Positions 5,885-64,000 are shown, counted from the stretch's first letter. The stretch: DNA of 64,000 nt from Escherichia coli (GCF_044324875.1 NZ_CP172185.1), one strand, 5' to 3'. Made by a program: numbers and translations. Notes: generated from the letters alone by a model not told the origin.

Positions 5885-5961
<77 letters not shown>

Positions 5962-45707: not shown

Positions 45708-47387
<1,680 letters not shown>

Positions 47388-47761
47388 TTATCGGGCTTTT
47401 CTTTAAGGGTAGTCATTCGCTCCGCCTGGTGGGCGACAAAGCGTGCGGTGGATCACGTTTATTAACCTGTCAAAAAATATAACGCACTAATATCCATGGA
47501 ATTTATAAAAATACAGATTTCGTGTTGTTTTTCATTTTCAGAACATTCAATCCTGCTCTCGCCGCAATCATGATATGCCATTCCTGATCTGGATAATAGG
47601 CATAGGCTATCTTATTGATAGTTTATATTCATGTAATTGATTGATTCCTATCAAAAAGCGTATCTCCCTGTTTTTTATGATGGCTTTGTCTCGCAGAGAC
47701 GTTTGCAGCATTCTGGAAAATTTTCTGGGTCACAATAACTCACCACCGTGAGGGAAGAATA

Positions 47762-49159
47762 ATGAAAATGGTCTCACGTATTACCGCGATCGGCCTGGCT
47801 GGCGTCGCGATTTGCTATTTAGGGTTATCTGGTTATGTGTGGTACCACGATAATAAACGCAGTAAACAGGCCGATGTTCAGGCATCTGCTGTCAGTGAAA
47901 ATAATCAGGTTTTAGGCTTTCTCCGCGAAAAAGGATGCGACTATTGCCACACGCCTTCGGCAGAATTACCCGCCTATTATTATATTCCTGGCGCGAAACA
48001 GTTGATGGATTACGACATTAAGCTTGGATATAAATCTTTTAACCTCGAGGCCGTGCGTGCGGCTCTGCTGGCTGATAAACCCGTTTCGCAAAGCGATCTG
48101 AATAAGATTGAATGGGTGATGCAGTATGAAACCATGCCACCAACGCGTTATACCGCGCTACACTGGGCGGGTAAGGTGAGTGATGAAGAGCGGGCGGAAA
48201 TACTCGCCTGGATTGCAAAACAGCGCGCGGAATATTACGCCAGCAATGACATTGCTCCGGAGCATCGCAATGAACCGGTGCAGCCCATCCCGCAAAAACT
48301 GCCTACCGATGCGCAAAAAGTGGCGTTGGGCTTTGCGCTGTATCACGATCCCCGTTTATCGGCGGATAGCACCATTTCATGCGCTCATTGCCATGCGTTG
48401 AATGCGGGGGGCGTCGATGGCAGAAAAACATCGATTGGTGTTGGTGGCGCAGTGGGGCCGATTAACGCGCCGACGGTATTTAACTCAGTATTTAACGTTG
48501 AGCAGTTCTGGGATGGTCGTGCGGCAACATTGCAGGATCAGGCTGGTGGACCGCCGTTGAATCCGATTGAAATGGCGTCGAAATCCTGGGACGAAATTAT
48601 TGCTAAGCTGGAAAAAGATCCGCAGCTTAAAGCGCAGTTCCTTGAAGTCTATCCGCAAGGTTTCAGTGGCGAAAATATTACTGATGCCATTGCTGAATTT
48701 GAGAAAACATTAATTACGCCGGATTCCCCATTTGATAAATGGTTGCGTGGAGATGAGAATGCGCTGACGGCACAACAGAAAAAAGGCTATCAATTATTCA
48801 AAGATAATAAATGTGCAACTTGTCATGGTGGTATTATTCTCGGCGGACGTTCCTTCGAACCGTTGGGGCTGAAAAAAGACTTTAACTTTGGTGAAATTAC
48901 GGCGGCGGATATTGGTCGTATGAATGTTACTAAAGAAGAGCGCGATAAATTGCGTCAGAAAGTACCCGGTTTACGTAACGTTGCACTAACGGCACCGTAC
49001 TTCCATCGCGGTGATGTGCCGACGCTGGACGGGGCGGTGAAACTGATGTTGCGCTATCAGGTAGGCAAAGAGCTGCCGCAGGAGGATGTGGATGATATCG
49101 TAGCTTTCCTGCACAGTCTGAACGGGGTTTACACGCCGTATATGCAGGATAAACAATAA
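47762..49159 (+). CDS. ccp: cytochrome c peroxidase Ccp (YhjA)
   Basis: 465-aa ORF with CxxCH haem-binding motifs (CDYCH, CAHCH, CATCH). Confidence 0.9.
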   Translation: MKMVSRITAIGLAGVAICYLGLSGYVWYHDNKRSKQADVQASAVSENNQVLGFLREKGCDYCHTPSAELPAYYYIPGAKQLMDYDIKLGYKSFNLEAVRAALLADKPVSQSDLNKIEWVMQYETMPPTRYTALHWAGKVSDEERAEILAWIAKQRAEYYASNDIAPEHRNEPVQPIPQKLPTDAQKVALGFALYHDPRLSADSTISCAHCHALNAGGVDGRKTSIGVGGAVGPINAPTVFNSVFNVEQFWDGRAATLQDQAGGPPLNPIEMASKSWDEIIAKLEKDPQLKAQFLEVYPQGFSGENITDAIAEFEKTLITPDSPFDKWLRGDENALTAQQKKGYQLFKDNKCATCHGGIILGGRSFEPLGLKKDFNFGEITAADIGRMNVTKEERDKLRQKVPGLRNVALTAPYFHRGDVPTLDGAVKLMLRYQVGKELPQEDVDDIVAFLHSLNGVYTPYMQDKQ

Positions 49160-49270
49160 TTAATTTAATCGCCCGAACAGGAATGTTCGGGTGATTTTTA
49201 TTGCGATAATAAAGTCTGTTTTTAATATTATCATGTTAAATGTTTATATTATAAAAAGTCGTTTTTCTGC

Positions 49271-49290
49271 TTAGGATTTTGTTATTTAAA
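49271..49290 (+). promoter_or_regulatory. GAD box (GadX/GadW/GadE binding site) upstream of gadA
   Basis: TTAGGATTTTGTTATTTAAA about 80 bp upstream of the gadA ATG. Confidence 0.6.
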
Positions 49291-49369
49291 TTAAGCCCGT
49301 AATGCCTTGCTTCCATTGCGGATAAATCCTACTTTTTTATTGCCTTCAAATAAATTTAAGGAGTTCGAA

Positions 49370-50770
49370 ATGGACCAGAAGCTGTTAACGGATTTCCGCT
49401 CAGAACTACTCGATTCACGTTTTGGCGCAAAGGCCATTTCTACTATCGCGGAGTCAAAACGATTTCCGCTGCATGAAATGCGCGATGATGTCGCATTCCA
49501 GATTATCAATGATGAATTATATCTTGATGGCAACGCTCGTCAGAACCTGGCCACTTTTTGCCAGACCTGGGACGACGAAAACGTCCATAAATTGATGGAT
49601 TTGTCGATCAATAAAAACTGGATCGACAAAGAAGAATATCCGCAATCTGCAGCCATCGACCTGCGTTGCGTAAACATGGTTGCCGATCTGTGGCATGCGC
49701 CTGCGCCGAAAAATGGTCAGGCCGTTGGCACCAACACCATTGGTTCTTCCGAGGCCTGTATGCTCGGCGGGATGGCGATGAAATGGCGTTGGCGCAAGCG
49801 TATGGAAGCCGCAGGTAAGCCGACCAACAAACCAAACCTGGTGTGCGGTCCGGTACAAATCTGCTGGCATAAATTTGCCCGCTACTGGGATGTGGAGCTG
49901 CGTGAGATCCCTATGCGCCCCGGTCAGTTGTTTATGGACCCGAAACGCATGATTGAAGCCTGCGACGAAAACACCATCGGCGTGGTGCCGACTTTTGGCG
50001 TGACCTACACCGGTAACTATGAGTTCCCGCAGCCGCTGCACGATGCGCTGGATAAATTCCAGGCCGACACCGGTATCGACATCGACATGCACATCGACGC
50101 TGCCAGCGGTGGCTTCCTGGCACCGTTCGTTGCCCCGGATATCGTCTGGGACTTCCGCCTGCCGCGTGTGAAATCGATCAGTGCTTCAGGCCATAAATTC
50201 GGTCTGGCTCCGCTGGGCTGCGGCTGGGTTATCTGGCGTGATGAAGAAGCGCTGCCGCAGGAACTGGTGTTCAACGTTGACTACCTCGGTGGTCAGATTG
50301 GGACTTTCGCCATCAACTTCTCCCGCCCGGCGGGTCAGGTAATTGCACAGTACTATGAATTCCTGCGCCTCGGTCGTGAAGGCTATACCAAAGTACAGAA
50401 CGCCTCTTACCAGGTTGCCGCTTATCTGGCGGATGAAATCGCCAAACTGGGGCCGTATGAGTTCATCTGTACCGGTCGCCCGGACGAAGGCATCCCGGCG
50501 GTTTGCTTCAAACTGAAAGAGGGTGAAGATCCGGGATACACCCTGTACGACCTCTCTGAACGTCTGCGTCTGCGCGGCTGGCAGGTTCCGGCCTTCACTC
50601 TCGGCGGTGAAGCCACCGACATCGTGGTGATGCGCATTATGTGTCGTCGCGGCTTCGAAATGGACTTTGCTGAACTGTTGCTGGAAGACTACAAAGCCTC
50701 CCTGAAATATCTCAGCGATCACCCGAAACTGCAGGGTATTGCCCAGCAGAACAGCTTTAAACACACCTGA
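49370..50770 (+). CDS. gadA: glutamate decarboxylase alpha GadA
   Basis: [28 protein letters not shown]...; 466 aa; adjacent to gadX. Confidence 0.95.
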
Positions 50771-50789
50771 TAACATAACGTTGTAAAAA

Positions 50790-50833
50790 CCGAATGCCCA
50801 ACCTTTAAAAAACAGTTGGGCATTCGGTTGCTT
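50790..50833 (+). terminator. Rho-independent terminator after gadA
   Basis: CCGAATGCCCAAC...GTTGGGCATTCGG hairpin followed by TTGCTT. Confidence 0.6.
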
Positions 50834-51129
50834 ATTAATCGCAATAATATATTGGCTGTCTATTCATCGTGTTGATAAGATATATGTTATATGAATGTTT
50901 ATTCAGTGTAACGGATATTTTTAATGTCACTACAAGGTATTATTTGCTTGCTATTAATTTCACTGCGTTCTTAAGCACGCCTTTTGTATTATAAATCCAG
51001 TCATCCTGCCCGTAGATTATCATCCTGTTTTCCCGCTTCGTTAAAATTTATTTATCAATCAATTTGACTTAAGAGGGCGGCGTGCTACATTAATAAACAG
51101 TAATATGTTTATGTAATATTAAGTCAACT

Positions 51130-51954
51130 ATGCAACCACTACATGGTAATTGTCTAATTGCGTACGCAAGACATAAATATATTCTCACCATGGTTAATGG
51201 TGAATATCGCTATTTTAATGGCGGTGATCTGGTTTTTGCGGATGCAAGCCAAATTCAAGTGGATAAGTGTGTTGAGAATTTCGTATTAGTTTCAAGAGAC
51301 ACGCTTTCATTATTTCTCCCGATGCTCAAGGAGGAGGCATTAAAACTTCATGCACATAAAAAAGTTCCTGCATTACTCGTTCATCACTGTACCAGAGATA
51401 TTCCTGTTTTTCAGGAAGTTGCGCAACTATCGCAGAATAAGAATCTTCGCTATGCAGAAATGCTACGTAAAAGGGCATTAATCTTTGCGTTGTTATCTGT
51501 TTTTCTTGAGGATACGCAGTTTATACCGTTACTTCTGAACGTGTTGCAACCGAATATGCGAACACGAGTTTGTACGGTCATCAATAATAATATCGCCCAT
51601 GAGTGGACATTAGCCCGAATCGCTAGCGAATTGTTGATGAGTCCAAGCCTGTTAAAGAAAAAATTGCGCGAAGAAGGTACGTCATATTCACAGTTGCTTA
51701 CTGAGTGTAGAATGCAGCGTGCTTTACAACTTATTGTTATATATGGTGTTTCAATTAAGCGAGTTGCAGTATCCTGTGGATATCACAGCGTGTCGTATTT
51801 CATTTACGTTTTTCGAAATTATTATGGGATGACGCCCACAGAGTATCAGGAGCGATCGGCGCAGGAATTACCGAACTGTGGCTCGGCGGCAAGTATGGCT
51901 GCGCAAGGGAATTTTTACGGCACTGACCGTTCTACGGAAGGAATAAGATTATAG
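51130..51954 (+). CDS. gadX: AraC-family acid resistance regulator GadX
   Basis: 274-aa ORF, MQPLHGNCLIAYARHKYILTMVNGEYRYF... Confidence 0.95.
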   Translation: MQPLHGNCLIAYARHKYILTMVNGEYRYFNGGDLVFADASQIQVDKCVENFVLVSRDTLSLFLPMLKEEALKLHAHKKVPALLVHHCTRDIPVFQEVAQLSQNKNLRYAEMLRKRALIFALLSVFLEDTQFIPLLLNVLQPNMRTRVCTVINNNIAHEWTLARIASELLMSPSLLKKKLREEGTSYSQLLTECRMQRALQLIVIYGVSIKRVAVSCGYHSVSYFIYVFRNYYGMTPTEYQERSAQELPNCGSAASMAAQGNFYGTDRSTEGIRL

Positions 51955-51970
51955 AGTTTTACTCAGACAT

Positions 51971-52076
51971 AAAAAAAACCCGGCATAGGGGACCGGGAAG
52001 AGGATAGTCTGCCGTCTCCAGACTAATAAACCGTTATAACACTCCCTGTTGGCACGGGAAACTTTGTGCTCTCAGT
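51971..52076 (-). ncRNA. gadY: GadY small RNA (antisense to the gadX 3' UTR)
   Basis: Minus-strand ACTGAGAGCACAAAGTTTCCCGTGCCAACAGGGAGTG...GGTCCCCTATGCCGGGTTTTTTTT matches remembered GadY, with terminator hairpin and U-run. Confidence 0.75.
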
Positions 52077-52322
52077 AAGTTAAATATAACTTTTACTGGA
52101 AATAAGATCAGCCATTTTTTTATAAACATAAGCTATACGCTGTGCGAAAATATATTCGTGCTGCATTTACTTATTATCAATTAACTGTTATGCAAAACTA
52201 CTTTGTGGATAAATTTTGGTCCTACCAAATCTGGCAGTTTTTGCGCTAAGAAACAGTCTGGCATCATTTCATTAGTATACTGAAATTGAAATAATCGCAG
52301 TAATGAAATATAAGGGATAGTC

Positions 52323-53051
52323 ATGACTCATGTCTGCTCGGTGATCCTCGTTCGTCGTTCATTCGATATTTATCATGAACAGCAAAAAATATCGTTGCAC
52401 AACGAGAGTATCCTGTTACTGGATAAAAATTTGGCAGACGATTTTACGTTTTGTTCACCGGATACGCGACGACTGGATATCGATGAGCTGACAGTTTGCC
52501 ATTACTTACAAAATATTCGTCAGATACCACGCAATTTAGGGTTACATAGCAAAGACCGTCTGTTAATTAACCAGTCACCCCCCATGCCGCTGGTGACGGC
52601 GATTTTTGATAGTTTCAATGACTCCGGGGTAAATTCGCCGATACTGAGCAAAATGCTCTATCTTTCCTGTTTATCGATGTTTTCTCATAAGAAAGAACTG
52701 ATCCCCTTACTTTTCAATAGTATCAGTACTGTTTCAGGAAAAGTTGAACGCCTTATTAGCTTTGATATCGCCAAACGTTGGTATCTGCGCGATATTGCGG
52801 AAAGAATGTATACCAGCGAGAGTCTAATCAAAAAAAAGTTGCAGGATGAAAATACCTGTTTCAGTAAAATATTACTCGCCTCCAGGATGTCGATGGCCAG
52901 ACGATTACTCGAGTTACGTCAAATTCCTCTGCATACTATTGCGGAAAAATGTGGCTATAGCAGTACATCGTACTTTATAAACACATTTCGACAATATTAT
53001 GGTGTAACGCCACATCAGTTTGCGCAACATTCGCCAGGTACCTTTTCCTGA
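52323..53051 (+). CDS. gadW: AraC-family acid resistance regulator GadW
   Basis: 242-aa ORF with C-terminal AraC helix-turn-helix. Confidence 0.9.
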   Translation: MTHVCSVILVRRSFDIYHEQQKISLHNESILLLDKNLADDFTFCSPDTRRLDIDELTVCHYLQNIRQIPRNLGLHSKDRLLINQSPPMPLVTAIFDSFNDSGVNSPILSKMLYLSCLSMFSHKKELIPLLFNSISTVSGKVERLISFDIAKRWYLRDIAERMYTSESLIKKKLQDENTCFSKILLASRMSMARRLLELRQIPLHTIAEKCGYSSTSYFINTFRQYYGVTPHQFAQHSPGTFS

Positions 53052-53413
53052 CATATTTTGCATTTGAATATTGGTCAGGATCTCACACCTGCTTCATGTG
53101 AAACTCTTCCCTGATGATTTCTGCCGGGCTACCGGCTAGTTCTCTTTCGCAGTTTGCCAGGCGGTATAGGTATTTTCAGGAGGAAAAGACTCGGCATGTT
53201 TGGGATTATTAAGCTGACAATTCATACGATTACGGGAATGTGGGTCAGTATTGTGTTGTTTAAATTGATGACGAATGGCTGGAGTGGTTTCTACTTTCAG
53301 TGCTGTGTACTAAGCCTGGTATTCCTGACGGTTAGCTGGTTGTTGAGTGGTGAATGGTTAGCAGGAAAGAGTAAGGCTGAACCCTCACGTTCAACCTTAC
53401 TCTCATTTACACG

Positions 53414-56400
53414 TTACGCTTTTTTAAAGCGGGCAAAGAGATGTTCCACTACAACGAAAAAGACCGGAACGAAGTAAATTGCCAGCACTGTTGCGGCAAA
53501 CATCCCGCCCATCACGCCGGTACCTACCGCGTTTTGCGCGCCAGAACCGGCACCATGACTGATAACCAGCGGCAGCACGCCGAGAATAAAGGCCAGAGAG
53601 GTCATCAGGATTGGGCGTAAACGCATTCGCGCCGCTTCGATGATCGCCTCTATCGGCGTTTTCCCTTCTTTCTGCATCATCTCAACGGCAAATTCGACAA
53701 TCAGGATGGCGTTTTTGGCGGAAAGCCCGATGGTGGTCAGCAAACCAACCTGGAAGTAGACGTCATTACTTAAGCCGCGTAGATCGGTGGCCAGTAATGC
53801 GCCAACGACGCCTAACGGTACAACCAACATCACCGAGAACGGAATTGACCAGCTCTCATAAAGTGCGGCGAGGGCGAGGAACACCACGACCAGTGAAATG
53901 GCATACAGCGCGGGAGCCTGGTTTGAGGATAACGCTTCCTGATACGACAGTCCGGTCCATGAGTAGCCGACGCCTGCCGGAAGTTTAGCGACCAGGTCTG
54001 CCATAAATTTCATGGCGTCACCGGTACTTTTCCCGGCCGCCGCTTCACCTAAAATCTCCATTGACGGGATGCCGTTGTAGCGTTCCAGTCGCGGTGAACC
54101 ATAGGTCCATTCGGTAGACGAATAGGCAGAAAGCGGTGCCATCGTGCCAGAGGCGTTGCGTACATACCACTGGTTGATGTTATCCGGCAACATACGGAAC
54201 GGCGTGCCTGCCTGGACATACACTTTTTTCACCCGCCCCTGGTTGAGGAAGTCGTTCACGTAGCTGCTGCCGAAGGCGGTGGAAATTGTCTGGTTGATAT
54301 CAGACAGCGCCACACCCATTGCCTCGGCTTTCGCGGCGTTGACGTTCACTTTGAACATCGGTGTATCTTCCAGGCCGTTCGGGCGTACCCCGGTGACTTG
54401 ATTCGGTGATTGCGCTGCCAGTGATAATAGCTCGTTTCGCGCCTGGGTCAGTTTTTCGTGTCCCAGGTTGCCGTTGTCCAGCAGTTCCATATCAAAACCT
54501 GACGCGGTACCCAGTTCAGCCACCGCGGGTAAGTTGAACGGGAAGACGACGGCTTTATTGATACTGCTTAACGCAATCATTGCCCGCTGAATGATCGCGG
54601 TAACCGAGTTTTCCTCACCGACACGTTCAGACCACGGTTTGAGGCTGATAAACGCCAGACCGTTGTTTTGCCCCTGGCCGCTGAAGCCAAAGCCGCCAAC
54701 GGTAAACACCGACTGAACATTATCTTTCTCTTTAGTCAGATAATAATCCGTCACCTGTTGCAGCACTTTCGTGGTGTTAACCATGGTGGCACCGGAAGGT
54801 AACTGCGCGGTGGTCATAAATACCCCCTGATCCTCTTCTGGTAAGAAAGAGGTCGGCGTGCGCAGGAACAGCACCGCCATCCCGGCGCAAATCAGCAGGT
54901 AGACCACCATGTAGCGACCGGTACAACGCAACAGCGAGCGGGTGCTGTCGGTATAGTGCTGAGTTGATTTTTCAAACAGTGTGTTGAAGCGTGCGAACAG
55001 GGCGTTAGGTTTGTGACCACCTTCCGGCGCGGCTTTCAGAATGGTGGCGCACAGGGCAGGGGTCAGGCTCATTGCCACAAATACTGAAAGCAGCATGGAG
55101 GAGATCAGCGTGATGGAGAACTGGCGGTAGATCTCCCCGGTTGCACCGCTCATAAAGGCCATCGGCATAAACACTGCGGAAAGAACAACGGCAATCCCGA
55201 CCAGCGCACGTTGGATCTGCCCCATCGATTTATGCGTCGCTTCCTTCGGCGGTAGCTTATCTTCTGCAATGACACGCTCGACGTTCTCCACCACCACGAT
55301 GGCGTCATCCACCAGTAACCCTATCGCCAGCACCATCCCGAACATAGTTAACGTGTTGATGGTGAAACCGACCGCCGACAAGATCGCAAACGTCCCGAGA
55401 ATAACCACCGGTACGGCAATCGTCGGGATGATTGTGGCACGGAAATTCTGCAAAAACAGATACATGACCAGGAAGACGAGGATGATAGCCTCAACCAGTG
55501 TTTTAAAAACTTCCTGAATAGAAATTTCGATAAACGGCGTGGTGTCGTAAGGATAAACCGTCTTCAGACTTGCGGGGAAATAGGCTGATAAGCGGTTCAG
55601 CTCCTCTTTGACTGCCCGTGAGGTATCCAGGGCGTTTGCTCCGGTAGCCAGTTTGATGGCGATCCCGGCAGCAGGTTTGCCGTTATAGCGCGCCACGGTG
55701 GAATAATCTTCCGCTCCAAGTTCGACGCGGGCGACATCACGCAGCAGCACTTGCGAACCATCTTGCTGAACTTTCAACAGGATTTTGCCAAATTCTTCCG
55801 GCGTTTGCAGACGCGTCTGCACAATGATCGAGGCGTTTAGTTGCTGGTCTGCCGCCTGTGGCATGCCACCCAGTTGACCACCGGAAATCTGGTTGTTTTG
55901 CACCTTAATCTGGGAAATAACATCGGAAGGTACCAGATTGTATTTATTGAGTTTTTGCGGGTCCAGCCAGATACGCATGGCGTACTCGGAACCAAAGAGC
56001 TGTACGCTACCAACGCCCGCGGTACGGCTTAGCGGGTCTTTGATATTAGACGCTACATAGTCCGCGATATCGTACTGGTTGAGGCTGCCGTTATCAGAAA
56101 TAAACGCCGCTACCATCAGGATATTACTGCTCGACTTATCGACGCTAATCCCCTGCTGCTGCACCGCTTCAGGTAATGAAGGCATAGCGAGTTGCAGTTT
56201 ATTTTGCACCTGAACCTGTGCGATATCAGGCGATGTCCCAGTCTCGAAGGTCAGAGTAATAGAGGCATTACCCGCCGCATCACTGGTTGAAGACATGTAC
56301 ATCAGGCCATCAAGCCCATTCATATTTTGCTCAATCACCTGAGTGACCGAGTCTTCTACCGTTTGCGCATCGGCACCTGGATAGGTAGCGCTGATGGTAA

Positions 56401-56527
56401 TGGTCGGTGGCGCAATCTGCGGATACTGCGCAACCGGTAAGTTCATGATTGCCAGACCGCCTGCAAGCATCATAATAATGGCAAGTACCCAGGCAAAAAC
56501 CGGGCGATCAATAAAATAGTTAGCCAT
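53414..56527 (-). CDS. mdtF: RND multidrug efflux pump MdtF
   Basis: 1037-aa AcrB-like ORF. Confidence 0.95.
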
Positions 56528-56551
56528 GAAAGTCCCCTTAAGCCTGCAACG

Positions 56552-57709
56552 TTATTGTTTCGATTCGGTGCTGGCGTTTTCCTGGCTGGAGGAAATTGCT
56601 CGTGCTTTGATACCCGGACGAATGCGTTGCAAACCGGAAACGATCACCCGATCGCCAGCCTGTAAGCCAGAGGTGACGACCCACTGGTCGCCGATGGCTT
56701 TGCTGGCTTCAATTTCACGTAGCTGCACGACATCGTCTTTATCCAGAATGAGCGCCGTTGCTTTACCCTGGGCGTTGTGGGTGACGCCTTCCTGCGGCAC
56801 CAGTAATACATTCTGGCGGCTACCTTCATCCACTAATGCCGTGACATACATGCCAGGCAGCAAGTCACCATTTGGGTTGGGGAAAATCGCCCGTAACGTC
56901 ACGGAGCCCGTGGTTTCATCCACCGTCGGGTCGGAGAATTTCAGCGTGCCGGTCTGGCTGTAACGTTTACCATTTTCCAGATTGAGCTGTACTGGCGTAC
57001 TGCCCTGAACCTGTTTGATTTGCCCACTGGCGACCTCTTCTTTCATACGCAAGAAATCCTGCACCGACTGCGTGAGATCGACATAAATCGGGTCCAGACG
57101 TTGTACGGTAACCAGCGAATCTGCCTGATTAGCGGTAACGAGTGCGCCGACGGTCACCGACGATTTCCCGCTGACGCCCGTAATCGGCGAGGTGACATTT
57201 GCGTATTGCAGGTTGATAGTCGCCTGTTCAACAGCCGCTTTGGCGACGGTGACATTGGCTTCTGCTTCATTCAACTGGGTGCGCGCGGTGTCGTAATCCT
57301 GACGGCTAACGTAGTTGGTCTTCAGCAACGATGCCTGGCGGTTAAAGGTGATGCGGGCATTGCTGGCGGTAGAGAGCGCTTTCGCCAGCGTGCCTTTGGC
57401 GGAGTTCAGCTCGGCCTGTAAAGGTGCAGGGTCAATCTGGTAAAGCGAATCGCCCTGGTTCACTTTATCGCCTTCGATAAAGTTGCGTTTAATGATAATA
57501 CCGCCCACCTGGGGACGTATCTCGGCAACTTCATAAGGAACGGTTCTACCGGGCAATTCGCTCAACACATTGACCGAACCGGGGGAGAGTGTGACGACAC
57601 CGACCTCAGGCGTCATGGCTGCGGCGTTTTCCGCCGATTTGTCATCGCAGGCGGTGAGCATCGCGCCGCAGAATAACAACGGTATTAACAGCTTTCTTCT
57701 TCTGTTCAT
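56552..57709 (-). CDS. mdtE: RND efflux membrane fusion protein MdtE
   Basis: 385-aa lipoprotein-type membrane fusion protein ORF upstream of mdtF. Confidence 0.95.
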   Translation of the reverse strand: MNRRRKLLIPLLFCGAMLTACDDKSAENAAAMTPEVGVVTLSPGSVNVLSELPGRTVPYEVAEIRPQVGGIIIKRNFIEGDKVNQGDSLYQIDPAPLQAELNSAKGTLAKALSTASNARITFNRQASLLKTNYVSRQDYDTARTQLNEAEANVTVAKAAVEQATINLQYANVTSPITGVSGKSSVTVGALVTANQADSLVTVQRLDPIYVDLTQSVQDFLRMKEEVASGQIKQVQGSTPVQLNLENGKRYSQTGTLKFSDPTVDETTGSVTLRAIFPNPNGDLLPGMYVTALVDEGSRQNVLLVPQEGVTHNAQGKATALILDKDDVVQLREIEASKAIGDQWVVTSGLQAGDRVIVSGLQRIRPGIKARAISSSQENASTESKQ

Positions 57710-58047
57710 TTTAGTCCCTGAAAATTCTTGAGAAATAACGGTTCTTTAAATTGCGCGCGAGGAGAGATATGAGGGATTTACAGACCAGCGGCATAGTGGG
57801 GTTGTCAGCCAGTAAGGTGGGATACAGGCATAGTGATCGACATGGTGAGGTCAACGACAAAAAAAATGTTGCCGTTCTGCCAACAGTTCCTGCCAGCATT
57901 CGGGCAACGAAGGGTTCTACTGGTGGATACATATACCAGGGGAATAAAGTCGTTTTCGCCTCTCCTTTAGTAATCACCGGGGGTAATGAAATCAGCATCT
58001 GCATCCCTCGTCATGCCAGCCATCAATTTCAGTTGCTTATGTCCTGA

Positions 58048-58575
58048 CTAAAAATAAGATGTGATACCCAGGGTGACGATGTCGCTCATACGTCTTAGTT
58101 TCAGCTTGTACATAATGTTGAATTTCTGAATCTTTAATGTTTGTTGCGAAATATTGAGCGTCGACGTGATATTGCTTTCATTTTTATTTTTCAGAATCAG
58201 TTGCATAATTTTGAACTGATTATGTGAAAAACATAATTGTGAATTCTTATGGGGCAAGTGTTTACCATAAGTAATCTCAAGAAGATTTTTGATACTTTCT
58301 TTGCGGCTAACAAAATAAATAGGCGCTTTAGCTTTTAGTTTACTGATGTGATAAGGTGCCAAAACAATAATTCTCTCGGCATCTAATTTCTCCAGAAATT
58401 TAATCGCTTCTTCATCAAGGATATGATTGTGATAGGTATCAATGATAACCTTGAAGGGTTTATTGCCTACTTTTTTGATCTCTGACAGGGAATTGATTTT
58501 TATCATTTCGTGATTATCTTTCAACTGCCAAAAGCCCTGTAAAAGAAAAGAATCTTTCGTCATGAGAAAAATCAT
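58048..58575 (-). CDS. gadE: LuxR-family acid resistance activator GadE
   Basis: MIFLMTKDSFLLQGFWQLKDNHEM...; 175 aa from an internal Met of the track ORF. Confidence 0.9.
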   Translation of the reverse strand: MIFLMTKDSFLLQGFWQLKDNHEMIKINSLSEIKKVGNKPFKVIIDTYHNHILDEEAIKFLEKLDAERIIVLAPYHISKLKAKAPIYFVSRKESIKNLLEITYGKHLPHKNSQLCFSHNQFKIMQLILKNKNESNITSTLNISQQTLKIQKFNIMYKLKLRRMSDIVTLGITSYF

Positions 58576-59373
58576 AACTTGCTCCTTAGCCGTTATCGTT
58601 TCGAACATGTCATCCTTTTCATTATTTACATCCTTGTCCGAATCGTTGTTCAATATAGTAAACGCCTATAAGAACTTTGCCCTTCGTGAACTAATACGTC
58701 TATTAACACTAATCAATACTTCAGATTTATCCATCACGCACTCCATATATTGATCCTAAGTAAGATTCCTGGTTGTTATCAATTTGTAAATGGTAAACAA
58801 AAAGTTAACGTTTGCGGATTACTGCCCAAGAATAAGTTATCAATAACCAGTTTGTGATCTCTGAAGAATATTACTAAAGTTAAAATGTAATCCGATTTAA
58901 ATATCGAGTCTCCTTGTTTCGACTTAAGCTGGCAATTGGATTGCCAGCTTTCTTTTAACGCATTGAAATTACCTGAGTAAATAACGCATTCATGTCTTCA
59001 GGTTTTTATATAGCGTCTGGAGACACGGATATTTATGCAATGTAATCAACGCCTGTTGCAAAAAAATGAACCCGGATTACTTATTTAACCGCCCATAGCA
59101 TCAACGCTTACGGAACTCTTTGTTCACTTTCCCACAGCACTTTTAAAACATTAAACCTGACTACGGAAAATATCAGCCATGATAATGTTTGAAATGGCTA
59201 ATTTGCCATGGAATGAAAAAAATTAGATGAAATTCAGTAGGTTGAAATAATCATCAGCAGGTAATTATTTCAATGATAGTGCGCAATTGATCTACAACGC
59301 TGTGTAGCGGAGAGAGTATTAATCGGATCATAGTCACATCAAGTGACTATGATCCGGGTGACAACAGGAATAA

Positions 59374-59946
59374 TTATTGCTGCTTAACGAACAAACTGGC
59401 GAAGCTGAACAGGCTGGCGGCGCTAAATATCAGTTCAATACCCACCAGTGTGGAAACCAAAGTTACAGACACCATCGGCGTTGCACCAAGGAATATCCAT
59501 GCAATGACGATATCCAGCACACCAATAACGAGCTGTAGCCAGCTGCCTTTCATTGAACGCTGACGATACCAACTCATCAGGCGAATAACCCCTGCAACAC
59601 AGAACAAACCGGCAATAAATGCCGCAATGGCAAAAATGCCCAGCTCCGGTGCGCGGATGAAGAAATAGCCGATCAATAAATAGGCGACTGCGACGAGGAA
59701 ACCGGATAATACCGGCCAGAAATTATGACTGCGGTTGCTGAATAATCCAACAATAAGCGCAACGCCCGAGCAGATTAATAATGCACCCACTACCGTGCTT
59801 AAAATATCGCCAGAGACGAACGGGAAACTGATACACAGCAACCCGACGATAAACAGTAGCACGGCAATAAACTGGATTGCTCTGCGATGCTTTTTCAGCA
59901 TCTCCAGATCAAACTTCAAAATTGTTGCCTTATCTATATATAACAT
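59374..59946 (-). CDS. hdeD: acid-resistance membrane protein HdeD
   Basis: 190-aa multi-TM ORF divergent from hdeA. Confidence 0.9.
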   Translation of the reverse strand: MLYIDKATILKFDLEMLKKHRRAIQFIAVLLFIVGLLCISFPFVSGDILSTVVGALLICSGVALIVGLFSNRSHNFWPVLSGFLVAVAYLLIGYFFIRAPELGIFAIAAFIAGLFCVAGVIRLMSWYRQRSMKGSWLQLVIGVLDIVIAWIFLGATPMVSVTLVSTLVGIELIFSAASLFSFASLFVKQQ

Positions 59947-60200
59947 AGAACCACCCTATAAAATTAAGAAGAAAATCCCCTGCTATCAATCTATGCCAAA
60001 AACGCGTCTAAGAATGCAGTCGATTTAATAAAAATTTCCTAATTACAGTATCTGATGCATCTGTAACTCATTGTATTGAAATAAAAATATCTGATTTTGA
60101 TATTTTCCATCAACATGACATATACAGAAAACCAGGTTATAACCTCAGTGTCGAAATTGATTCGTGACGGCTCTTTCACTTTATAGTTGAGGATATTACG

Positions 60201-60533
60201 ATGAAAAAAGTATTAGGCGTTATTCTTGGTGGTCTGCTTCTTCTGCCAGTTGTGAGCAATGCAGCGGATGCGCAAAAAGCAGCTGATAACAAAAAACCGG
60301 TCAACTCCTGGACCTGTGAAGATTTCCTGGCTGTGGACGAATCCTTCCAGCCAACTGCAGTTGGTTTTGCTGAAGCGCTGAACAACAAAGATAAACCAGA
60401 AGATGCGGTTTTAGATGTTCAGGGTATTGCAACCGTAACCCCAGCTATCGTTCAGGCTTGTACTCAGGATAAACAAGCCAACTTTAAAGATAAAGTTAAA
60501 GGCGAATGGGACAAAATTAAGAAAGATATGTAA
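60201..60533 (+). CDS. hdeA: periplasmic acid-stress chaperone HdeA
   Basis: 110-aa ORF with signal peptide, MKKVLGVILGGLLLLPVVSNAADAQKAADNKKPVNSWTCEDF... Confidence 0.95.
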   Translation: MKKVLGVILGGLLLLPVVSNAADAQKAADNKKPVNSWTCEDFLAVDESFQPTAVGFAEALNNKDKPEDAVLDVQGIATVTPAIVQACTQDKQANFKDKVKGEWDKIKKDM

Positions 60534-60648
60534 TTCCGGGAATGCGTTACATCGTACTTCCTTGCATATTGAACAGGCCGGAATATCTTCTTTAAAAGCA
60601 GCTATTCCTCCTGTTTGTATATAATCTCTATATTGAATGGGTTACAAA

Positions 60649-60975
60649 ATGAACATTTCATCTCTCCGTAAAGCGTTTATTTTTATGGGCGCTGTAGCGG
60701 CTTTGTCACTGGTGAACGCACAATCTGCGCTGGCAGCCAATGAATCCGCTAAAGATATGACCTGCCAGGAATTTATTGATCTGAATCCAAAAGCAATGAC
60801 ACCGGTTGCATGGTGGATGCTGCATGAAGAGACAGTATATAAAGGTGGCGATACCGTTACTTTAAATGAAACCGATCTCACTCAAATTCCTAAAGTGATC
60901 GAATACTGCAAGAAAAACCCGCAGAAAAATTTGTATACCTTCAAAAATCAAGCATCTAATGACTTGCCGAATTAA
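60649..60975 (+). CDS. hdeB: periplasmic acid-stress chaperone HdeB
   Basis: MNISSLRKAFIFMGAVAALSLVNAQSALA... signal peptide. Confidence 0.9.
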   Translation: MNISSLRKAFIFMGAVAALSLVNAQSALAANESAKDMTCQEFIDLNPKAMTPVAWWMLHEETVYKGGDTVTLNETDLTQIPKVIEYCKKNPQKNLYTFKNQASNDLPN

Positions 60976-61038
60976 TGAGGTACAAGTAAAAAGGAGTAGC
61001 AAGTTGAGCCATCTTGCTGCTCCTTTTTGCTTTTTTAT

Positions 61039-61686
61039 ATGACAGCAGAATTTATTATACGTCTTATACTCGCAGCAATTGCCTGTGGCGCTATTGGCAT
61101 GGAAAGGCAAATGCGCGGCAAAGGAGCAGGGTTACGCACACATGTATTAATTGGCATGGGAAGCGCCCTGTTTATGATTGTTTCGAAATATGGTTTTGCT
61201 GACGTGCTGTCTTTAAATCACGTCGGACTGGACCCCAGCCGTATTGCAGCTCAGGTGGTGACGGGCGTCGGGTTTATCGGCGCAGGTAACATTCTCGTTC
61301 GTAACCAAAATATTGTAGGTCTGACGACAGCAGCGGATATCTGGGTGACCGCCGCCATTGGTATGGTTATTGGTAGCGGTATGTACGAACTGGGCATTTA
61401 TGGTTCAGTGATGACCTTGCTGGTGCTGGAAGTCTTCCATCAATTAACCTTCCGCCTGATGAACAAAAATTACCATTTACAGCTGACATTAGTGAACGGT
61501 AATACGGTATCAATGCTCGACTGGTTTAAGCAGCAAAAAATAAAAACGGATTTAGTTTCGTTGCAGGAAAGTGAAGATCATGAAGTGGTCGCCATTGATA
61601 TCCAGCTTCATGCCACAACGTCGATAGAAGATCTGTTGCGATTATTAAAAGGTATGGCAGGGGTGAAAGGCGTTTCAATTAGCTAA
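61039..61686 (+). CDS. yhiD: MgtC-family inner membrane protein YhiD
   Basis: MTAEFIIRLILAAIACGAIGMERQ... MgtC/SapB signature. Confidence 0.9.
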   Translation: MTAEFIIRLILAAIACGAIGMERQMRGKGAGLRTHVLIGMGSALFMIVSKYGFADVLSLNHVGLDPSRIAAQVVTGVGFIGAGNILVRNQNIVGLTTAADIWVTAAIGMVIGSGMYELGIYGSVMTLLVLEVFHQLTFRLMNKNYHLQLTLVNGNTVSMLDWFKQQKIKTDLVSLQESEDHEVVAIDIQLHATTSIEDLLRLLKGMAGVKGVSIS

Positions 61687-61706
61687 TCTTTATAGTTATT
61701 TATTCA

Positions 61707-61732
61707 CAGGAGTACCAGAGCGGTACTCCTGT
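61707..61732. terminator. bidirectional hairpin between convergent yhiD and chuV
   Basis: CAGGAGTACC-AGAGC-GGTACTCCTG palindrome. Confidence 0.6.
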
Positions 61733-61737
61733 TGGTT

Positions 61738-62508
61738 TTAATGATCGAGGACGATCAGTGGTGAATGGTTGGCAGGATCTTTAAGTACGGTAATATCCGC
61801 GCCGTAGAGCATTGTCAGCGCCTGCTGTGTCAATACGTCCTGCGGTTTACCATTTGCGATAACCTTTCCTTTTTGCATTAATACAATACGGTCTGCATAA
61901 CGCGCGGCAAGATTTAGATCGTGCAATACGCAGCAAACATTGAACTGCCGTTCGTGAACTAACTGGCGTAATAAACGGAACAAGTGCTGCTGATGGTGAA
62001 TATCCAGCGCCGAAGTTGGTTCATCAAGAAATAACCATTTCGGTGAGGGAGTAGGTTCCCAGAGTTGCACCAGCAGGCGCGCTAATTGTACGCGCTGTTG
62101 TTCACCACCGGATAATTGCCGATAGTCGCGGTTTGCTAACGCCTGACAGTCACATAACGCCATTATTTGTGCTGTTTCATTATCCTGATTACCAGTACGA
62201 TGCGGATGCCGACCCATCTGGATAACTTCTTGTACGCTGAATGGAAACGCCATGTGGCTATTTTGACGCATCACGGCCCGGTGTTTCGCCAGTTCAGTAA
62301 TCGACCATTCATTTAATGGCTTATTAAACAACCGACATTCGCCGCTATCAGGTTGAAGATAGCCGGTTAACTGGCGAAGCAGCGTAGATTTTCCCGCACC
62401 ATTAGGGCCGAGAATGGCAACAATTTCCCCACCGGGAAAAGTCAGCGAGACATTGTCAGTCAGACGCCGCCCCTGAAGGCTATAAACCAGATTCTGGGCG
62501 CTGATCAT
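61738..62508 (-). CDS. chuV: haemin ABC transporter ATP-binding protein ChuV/HmuV
   Basis: Walker [10 protein letters not shown], signature [13 protein letters not shown]; start taken at MISAQNL..., overlapping the chuU stop. Confidence 0.85.
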
Positions 62509-63497
62509 GTGATCCTCCGGTTGCGCAGAATCAACCACATAAAATAAGGACCGCCAAGCAGGCTGGTTAATAATCCCACGGGCATTTCTGCTGGCTGTAC
62601 CAGCGTGCGGGCAAGCGTGTCTGCCATCAGCAATAAACAGGCTCCGGCGAGGGCGGAGCAAGGGATTAGCCAGCGGTGATTTGCCCCGGTAGTCATACGA
62701 ATCAGATGCGGGATCACCAGGCCAATAAAGCCGATAATGCCGCTTACCGATACGGCGGCACCAACGAGCAGTGAGCTCACTAACAGTAATTGCTGGCGTT
62801 TACGCTTAACGTTCACGCCGAGGTAGTGGGCTTCTTCATCACCGAGCTGCAGTAAATTCAGCGTTCCGGCGAGACAAGTTGTTGCGATAATGGCCGGTAG
62901 GATGAATGAACTGGCAACCAATAACGTCGGCCATTGCGCCTGTCCAAGATTGCCCATCATCCACAATGTGAGTTGTCGTAGCTGCTGCTCATCGCCGATA
63001 TAGCTCAGGATGCCGATCGCTGCGCCGCACAGGGCATTGATGGCGATACCGGCGAGTAATAATTGCATCATGCTGCCATCGCGATGGCGCTGCGTGATGA
63101 GAAAAATGATGGTGCAGACCACTAAACTTCCGGCAATGGCAAACACCATTTGCTCATAGAGCACCAGCACCACTGGGAAGGAGAAGGGCAGCACAATAGC
63201 AACGCCAACCATTAATGCAGAACCGCTACTGACGCCGAGTAATCCAGGGTCAGCCATTGGGTTGCGAAAAAGCCCCTGCATAATTACCCCTGCGGTTGCC
63301 AACGCTGCACCTACCAGCACCGCCAGCAAAACCCGTGGTAGACGAATATTGAGCCAGATATCGCGGTATTCCTCATCAAAAAGGGCATCAAAACTGATCT
63401 TTAACGCTCCCTGACTGGCACCGAACAGCACCAGAGCGAGCAATAATAGTGATAGCCCCATAAAGACCCTGGCGGAAGAGAGTGAATCCTTGAGCAC
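62505..63497 (-). CDS. chuU: haemin ABC transporter permease ChuU/HmuU (FecCD family)
   Basis: 330-aa multi-TM FecCD-type permease ORF. Confidence 0.85.
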
Positions 63498-63545
63498 GCA
63501 AAACTCCGTTACGACATTACGGCGCGGAGATTCCGCGTCGGGGGA

Positions 63546-64000
63546 TCACGCCGGTTTCAGGTCCGGTTCAATCAGACTGTAGACCTGCTGGTTAAGTGCT
63601 GGCGCATTTGCCAGTTCATGGATATGTGCGGCGACATCGGCACGGTTAACAAAACCATGACACTCCTGATTTTGTATCCGTTGTGCTTTGCCCGTTGCCG
63701 CCCCATCAAGCAGACCGCCAGGGCGGAGAATGGCGTAATCAAGCTGGCTGGTTTGCAACCAGCTTTCCGCCAGCGTTTTTTCCCGTACCGCCTGACCAAA
63801 CGCAGCCTTTGCCCGCTCCGATAAAAACGGCCAGCTATCGCCGCATCCCAAAGAGGTCACCAGAATCATGCGACTAATGCCGGCCTTTTCGGCCTCATCA
63901 ATCACTGTTCTGTGCGCCAGATAATCCTGAGCTCCGCCCATTGTTGAGATGATAAGCGCATCCGGGCCAGCTGCGCGGCAAGCATCCGCGACTACGCTGG
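63546..64000 (-). CDS. chuY: ChuY-like NAD(P)H-dependent reductase, C-terminal part (gene runs off window end)
   Basis: Open frame to the window edge; Rossmann-like ...ILVTSLGCGDSWPF...; position upstream of chuU-chuV. Confidence 0.55.
   Translation of the reverse strand, partial: SVVADACRAAGPDALIISTMGGAQDYLAHRTVIDEAEKAGISRMILVTSLGCGDSWPFLSERAKAAFGQAVREKTLAESWLQTSQLDYAILRPGGLLDGAATGKAQRIQNQECHGFVNRADVAAHIHELANAPALNQQVYSLIEPDLKPA

Follow-up and report, generated by a model that had tools for sequence, protein, structure and literature searches.

Positions 49160 to 60975 of the 64,000-nucleotide Escherichia coli stretch analysed here (GCF_044324875.1, NZ_CP172185.1; hereafter, the window) hold the acid fitness island (AFI), chromosomal, intact, and organised as in K-12, in a strain that is chu-positive. 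Its genes run in the order gadA-gadX-gadW-mdtF-mdtE-gadE-hdeD-hdeA-hdeB-yhiD, the ccp/treF flank is present, and the whole is the reverse complement of the K-12 MG1655 arrangement at about 98% nucleotide identity. The island is already known; it is ordinary and well studied, and holds no surprise for the specialist.

Open reading frames (ORFs) were called across 47000-64000, and the annotated K-12 MG1655 locus (NC_000913.3, 3652000-3670000) was compared gene by gene with the window by BLAST. The two are collinear from ccp (47762-49159, + strand) to yhiD: each K-12 gene maps at 94-100% nucleotide identity, in K-12 order. All protein-coding genes have the K-12 length, an ATG start, and a terminal stop codon, with no internal stops. 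Pfam domains are those expected for each protein: a pyridoxal phosphate-type decarboxylase; two AraC-type helix-turn-helix (HTH) regulators; an AcrB-type RND permease; an HlyD-type protein; a GerE/LuxR regulator; a DUF308 protein; two HdeA-family proteins; and an MgtC protein. The GadE, HdeA, and HdeB proteins are identical to those of K-12, and the others carry one to six amino acid substitutions, save GadX with 19. Insertions and deletions relative to K-12 are confined to the gadA-gadX spacer and to one base in the gadX-gadW spacer. The alignment with K-12, which the original prediction had proposed as its check, thus bears out both the identity of the island and the claim that the nine genes from gadA to hdeB are full length.

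In MG1655 itself, the AFI (slp-dctR-yhiD-hdeBA-hdeD-arrS-gadE-gadF-mdtEF-gadW-gadY-gadX-gadA; NC_000913.3, 3653961-3667580) shares gene order, orientation, and gene lengths with the window from yhiD to gadA. The likeness extends to identical gadE, hdeA, arrS, and gadY genes, an exact GAD box, and a gadE upstream region of 798 bp; the differences are a gadX gene of another allele class, 19 residues apart, and a gadA-gadX spacer that is 10 bp shorter in the window. Across complete E. coli genomes, the island query was covered to at least 80% at one place in 5406 of 5426, and the closest genome is that of strain MEW (99.7% over the island).

The gadA gene (49370-50770, + strand) encodes the 466-residue glutamate decarboxylase A (98.2% nucleotide identity to K-12; Pfam Pyridoxal_deC, E = 5.8e-111), with two amino acid changes, D153N and D384E. 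K-12 gadA and gadB differ at 31 diagnostic sites, and the window gene is gadA-type at 30 of them, so the decarboxylase gene is gadA and not its paralogue; gadB-to-gadA gene conversion was rejected on the same count.

A GAD box had been noted upstream of gadA, and it is confirmed there. TTAGGATTTTGTTATTTAAA (49271-49290, + strand), the predicted site for the GadE/RcsB heterodimer, matches exactly at 20 of 20 positions; it is unique in the window, and 100 shuffles yielded no match even at three mismatches. Exactly 16 bp separate it from the inferred gadA −35 element, TTGCTT, and an identical GAD box stands at an equal distance upstream of K-12 gadB. The work of Castanié-Cornet et al. (PMC2887963) puts 16 bp between the GAD box and the gadA −35 element downstream of it, centres the box 63 bp ahead of the start, and shows that the GadE/RcsB heterodimer, not GadE on its own, binds it. 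Here, the inferred core promoter (49307-49335, + strand) consists of the −35 element (49307-49312), a 17-bp spacer with the RcsB box region, and the −10 element TACTTT (49330-49335). With the published geometry, the gadA start would fall near 49343, which would centre the GAD box at about −63.

Also upstream of gadA are two adjacent candidate GadX/GadW half-sites, AAGTCTGTTTTTAATATTAT and ATGTTAAATGTTTATATTAT (49212-49252, + strand), with three and four mismatches, respectively, to the binding consensus AtGtcTGATtTttatattat (PMC4918353). A search for further GAD boxes with up to six mismatches returned only weak sites in the island, at 52272, 53245, 60023, and 60076, and none in the P1 region of gadE, for which a GAD box has been reported (PMC3708157). 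The sole candidate near P1, a TTAGGA core at 58759-58754 (− strand), mismatches at 9 of 20 positions and is not claimed.

Downstream of gadA lies the gadA-gadX intergenic region (50771-51129, + strand; 91.4% identity to K-12), which falls into two parts. The distal part (about 50777-51043) is hypervariable and, when aligned with K-12, shows a gap of 10 bp at 51015; the proximal part, some 110 bp, is nearly invariant, with one or two single-base differences in an alignment of nine strains (the window, K-12, and seven others), and includes a promoter-like site at 51064-51091. The distal block (50777-51043) is a hypervariable segment in its own right, in which at least three haplotypes and an indel of 10 bp occur. 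That the sequence upstream of gadX is hypervariable has already been published: the most variable single non-coding position of the E. coli "alleleome" lies 222 bp upstream of gadX (Lamoureux et al., PMC11106028), corresponding to about 50908 in the window.

The gadX gene (51130-51954, + strand) encodes a 274-residue AraC-family regulator with HTH_AraC and HTH_18 domains, and belongs to a non-K-12 allele class. Its nucleotide identity to K-12 is 94.2%, its 19 amino acid changes compare with none to six for the other island proteins, and its nonsynonymous divergence (dN) of 0.035 is the island maximum. Synonymous divergence (dS) is high as well, at 0.16, giving a dN/dS of 0.21, so that the gadX alleles are old and functional rather than decaying. 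Most substitutions lie outside the HTH region (residues 164-242), with three inside it (183, 205, and 207).

The small RNA (sRNA) GadY (51971-52076, − strand) occupies the space between gadX and gadW, whose start is at 52323. It is identical to K-12 gadY at 106 of 106 positions, and the Rfam model RF00122 (GadY), aligned over its full length (positions 1-114 of 114), scores 150 bits at 51966-52079 (− strand), where the gathering score is 45. The RNA ends in a GC-rich terminator hairpin with a U8 run. GadY had been described as antisense to the gadX 3' end. This holds for the 3' untranslated region (UTR) and the gadX-gadW spacer, but not for the coding sequence: the 3' end of GadY is 17 nt beyond the gadX stop (51954), and the two do not overlap. 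The adjoining gadW gene (52323-53051, + strand) encodes a 242-residue AraC-family regulator with HTH_18 and HTH_AraC domains (97.4% nucleotide identity, six amino acid changes relative to K-12).

Three genes on the opposite strand follow. These are mdtF (53414-56527, − strand), for the 1037-residue RND efflux permease (98.2% nucleotide identity, two amino acid changes; Pfam ACR_tran, 1412 bits); mdtE (56552-57709, − strand), for the 385-residue membrane fusion protein (98.5%, one change; HlyD-type domains); and gadE (58048-58575, − strand), for the 175-residue LuxR-family master activator with its GerE domain. Co-transcription of gadE with mdtEF has been reported (PMC3708157). The gadE gene is identical to that of K-12 at 528 of 528 nucleotides, and the GadE protein is identical in all nine strains compared. 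Species-wide nucleotide invariance was rejected as the cause of the 0/528 differences from K-12, as 12 sites vary among the nine strains.

The gadE 3' UTR contains a further sRNA, GadF (Rfam name ES205; 57859-57949, − strand), 99 nt downstream of the gadE stop on the gadE strand, with a terminator stem and U8. It matches K-12 gadF (b4718) at 90 of 91 positions, and Rfam RF02754 (ES205) reaches 105 bits at 57859-57930 (− strand), above its gathering score of 86. GadF was found by RIL-seq as an Hfq-bound sRNA processed from the gadE transcript (PMC5145812). It is the third sRNA of the island, one that the original prediction overlooked. Among further RNA families sought across 49000-61800 at permissive Rfam thresholds, GadY and ES205 alone were credible; the rest were microRNA-model noise (E at least 0.02). 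An ORF at 57769-58047 (+ strand), antisense to GadF and the gadE 3' UTR, is called a "hypothetical protein" in other genomes by the NCBI pipeline. It is frameshifted in O157:H7, and in SCU-176 and 702/18 it measures 330 rather than 279 bp; because of this frameshift and variable length, it is probably not a real gene.

The gadE control region, the spacer between gadE and hdeD (58576-59373, − strand), had been expected as a multi-promoter region of roughly 800 bp. It is exactly 798 bp long, as is the K-12 region (PMC3708157); 16 substitutions separate the two (98.0% identity), and there are no indels. The gadE 5' ends reported at −21, −124 (T1), −324/−317 (T2), and −566 (T3) (PMC3708157) project within it, on the − strand, to 58596, 58699, 58899/58892, and 59141, respectively; the 45 nt immediately upstream of each of T1, T2, and T3 are free of these substitutions. 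A generic promoter scan performed no better than shuffles (6 hits versus 5.8 expected in 57700-59400; 30 versus 22.4 in the island), and P1-P3 were not placed by it.

The antisense sRNA ArrS had been suspected in this region and left unplaced; it can now be assigned to 58887-58956 (+ strand), where 70 of 70 positions are identical to K-12 arrS (b4704). This assignment is based on its identity to the annotated gene of K-12, because Rfam returns no match at 58887-58956. ArrS spans −312 to −381 from the gadE ATG and is complementary to the long (T3) gadE 5' UTR. It is downstream of T3 (59141) and almost wholly upstream of the T2 ends (58892/58899), which fits the definition given in PMC6755755. 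Its terminator, a hairpin with an 11-bp stem (58926-58950) followed by TCTTTT, is the only terminator-like site of the region, and ArrS folds better than all of 200 shuffles (z = −3.84). A weak candidate promoter (TTGTGA, 17-bp spacer, TAAAGT) ends 7 nt before 58887.

Beyond the control region come the membrane and periplasmic functions. The hdeD gene (59374-59946, − strand) encodes the 190-residue acid-resistance membrane protein with DUF308 repeats (97.9% nucleotide identity, one amino acid change). Between it and hdeA is the divergent promoter region (59947-60200), identical to K-12 at 253 of 254 positions, with a candidate GAD-box-like site (60023-60042, − strand; five mismatches) and a candidate GadX/W-like site (60087-60106, + strand; three mismatches). 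Next are the two periplasmic acid chaperone genes, each with a Pfam HdeA domain: hdeA (60201-60533, + strand; 110 residues; 333/333 identity to K-12) and hdeB (60649-60975, + strand; 108 residues; 98.5% nucleotide identity, protein identical), the annotated hdeB start being 60649 rather than 60637, where an in-frame ATG lies further upstream. The hdeAB-yhiD operon ends with yhiD (61039-61686, + strand), for a 215-residue MgtC-family membrane protein with an MgtC domain (98.0% nucleotide identity, two amino acid changes); this last gene lies past position 60975, where the original prediction closed the island. A terminator-like hairpin (61706-61732) follows.

Directly after yhiD begins the chu/shu haem-uptake cluster (61738-64000, − strand), with the haem ABC ATPase, chuU, and the start of chuY, at 99.9% identity to strain MEW; this cluster marks the strain as chu-positive. 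Gene-by-gene BLAST of K-12 slp and dctR gave no match in the window, which ends inside the chu cluster. Whereas dctR and slp come after yhiD in the K-12 AFI, here they lie outside the window because the chu cluster takes that place, which the original prediction did not mention. In chu-positive strains the cluster lies between yhiD and the island's far end, and in both O157:H7 FRIK2455 and strain MEW haem ABC transporter genes directly follow yhiD, as in the window. (O157:H7 differs from the window in its K-12-type gadX allele, 18 amino acids apart.)

Variation is unevenly spread along the island. In the nine-strain alignment, the least variable parts are the sRNAs and the hdeD-hdeA promoter region: nucleotide diversity is 0.002 for GadY, 0.006 for ArrS (each with a single segregating site), and 0.005 for the promoter region. 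It is 0.007 for both gadE and hdeA, rises to 0.041 for gadX, and peaks at 0.075, the island maximum, in the gadA-gadX spacer. Base composition is uneven too. The regulatory parts are AT-rich, with GC fractions of 0.34-0.42 around gadE, hdeD, and hdeAB (58000-61000) and of 0.39-0.40 around gadX and gadW (51000-53000), against 0.50-0.54 in mdtEF and mostly 0.45-0.58 in the flanks. These promoters are reported to be subject to H-NS silencing, which the AT-rich regulatory parts fit.

The gadX alleles divide into two classes. GadX of the window, MEW (100% identical over gadX), SCU-176, and 702/18 are within four residues of each other; those of K-12, O104:H4, O157:H7, M6, and WP8-S18-ESBL-07 are 18-20 residues from the window. 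Over 50771-51954, identity to the window is bimodal across 5417 genomes, with 1805 at 95% or above and 3612 at 90-95%; just five match at 99% or above. From about 55.6 kb on, hardly any differences separate WP8-S18-ESBL-07 from the window, yet the two differ at 45 sites within 51124-51934, and these differences end at the gadX stop codon. Because they cluster in gadX while the flank is near-identical, the pattern indicates recombination at gadX; allele class is independent of the flanks, and the two classes are exchanged with breakpoints close to both ends of the gene.

Since the sequences are identical or nearly so, the mechanism established in K-12 is likely to apply in this strain. GadE would be made from the multi-promoter control region of 798 bp. 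In concert with RcsB, it would bind the GAD box, some 63 bp ahead of the gadA start, to activate glutamate decarboxylase, and would also activate hdeAB-yhiD, hdeD, and its own P1 promoter. The AraC-family proteins GadX and GadW would feed into gadE and gadA, and mdtEF would be co-transcribed with gadE. Three sRNAs, GadY, ArrS, and GadF, would add post-transcriptional control. GadY is expected to pair with the gadX 3' UTR and gadX-gadW spacer, stabilising gadX mRNA with RNase III involved in cleavage (PMC10057817). ArrS would pair with −312 to −381 of the long T3 gadE leader, raising gadE expression in a way that depends on RNase III (PMC6755755, PMC6212723). GadF would be cut from the gadE 3' UTR and act in trans through Hfq, and ArrS and GadF would both activate cfa as well. 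The cis-antisense arrangement of K-12 GadY-gadXW and ArrS-gadE (an sRNA opposite the untranslated region of its target, fully complementary to it, and ending in an intrinsic terminator) recurs in the window with the same genes and no difference. All told, this is almost certainly a normal, functional acid fitness island that works as described in K-12, with function assigned by transfer from the K-12 experiments.

Two considerations weigh against that conclusion. Every functional step is carried over from K-12; and GadX, with 19 of 274 residues changed and a distal upstream region only 91% identical, belongs to a branch that could differ in its behaviour. The quantitative behaviour of the GadX branch is the main residual uncertainty. 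One may accordingly picture an island that is intact but rewired, in which the non-K-12 gadX allele and its distal upstream haplotype alter the timing or strength of gadX expression, and hence that of gadE and gadA. The excess of amino acid changes over the other island proteins, the maximal dN, the 91.4% identical spacer with its 10-bp gap, and the mere 5 of 5417 genomes matching 50771-51954 at 99% or above all lean that way. However, many genomes carry the allele class (1805 of 5417 at 95% or above), the protein is only four residues from those of SCU-176 and 702/18, dN/dS indicates purifying selection, the proximal 110 bp or so is nearly invariant and GadY has a single variable site among the nine strains, and all but three substitutions avoid the HTH region; such rewiring is therefore judged unlikely. 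About as unlikely is a broader proposal: that the two old gadX classes (some 18-20 residues apart, dS about 0.16), which recombination has moved between lineages beside an independently hypervariable distal block and an almost invariant GadY, are both kept by selection, for example for different acid-response set-points in different hosts, the window carrying the minority class.

That the locus is instead a decayed or rearranged island copy (with pseudogenes, an insertion sequence, or gadB in place of gadA) and merely resembles a working one is scarcely credible. Such decay does exist in a few genomes: in strain 3059, for example, a Tn3-family transposase sits upstream of gadE, and strain 2273-PO3 has a 16% partial gadX match. 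The window itself lends this no support, and intact reading frames free of stops, indels limited to the gadA-gadX spacer and one base of the gadX-gadW spacer, and gadA-type diagnostic sites rule it out. A narrower doubt concerns the control region, which may not be purely "multi-promoter": there is some chance, well short of even, that the −21 end and at least part of T2 (−324/−317) are RNA processing products, T2 arising when RNase III, guided by ArrS, cleaves T3. The T2 ends (58892/58899) fall 6-13 nt inside the ArrS-complementary stretch; a digestion product was suggested for the −21 end (PMC3708157); and an RNase III cleavage site in ArrS appears in transcriptome-wide mapping (PMC6212723). 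Yet P2 promoter-lacZ fusions are reported as active in the studies summarised by PMC3708157, and sequence alone cannot separate primary from processed 5' ends.

Two features elsewhere in the window are recorded here. A tandem array of four ldr/rdl type I toxin-antitoxin units occupies 15233-17073 (repeat period of 483 bp, 3.8 copies, 95% matches), and Rfam finds rdlD on the − strand at four positions, 15319, 15802, 16285, and 16768; K-12 has a single ldrD/rdlD pair at the same locus, between bcsG and yhjV. A tRNA gene at 5885-5958 (+ strand; Rfam, 60.7 bits) is presumably proK, beside the dpp operon, by synteny with K-12.

The value of these results is mainly one of annotation: they give exact coordinates in this strain for the protein genes, the GAD box, the projected gadE transcript ends, and the three sRNAs. 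Mosaicism of the gadX alleles is a minor population-genetic point, though if both classes are indeed held by selection, the window strain could show distinct GadX regulon behaviour. For the organism, they show that a chu-positive lineage has its acid-resistance machinery intact.

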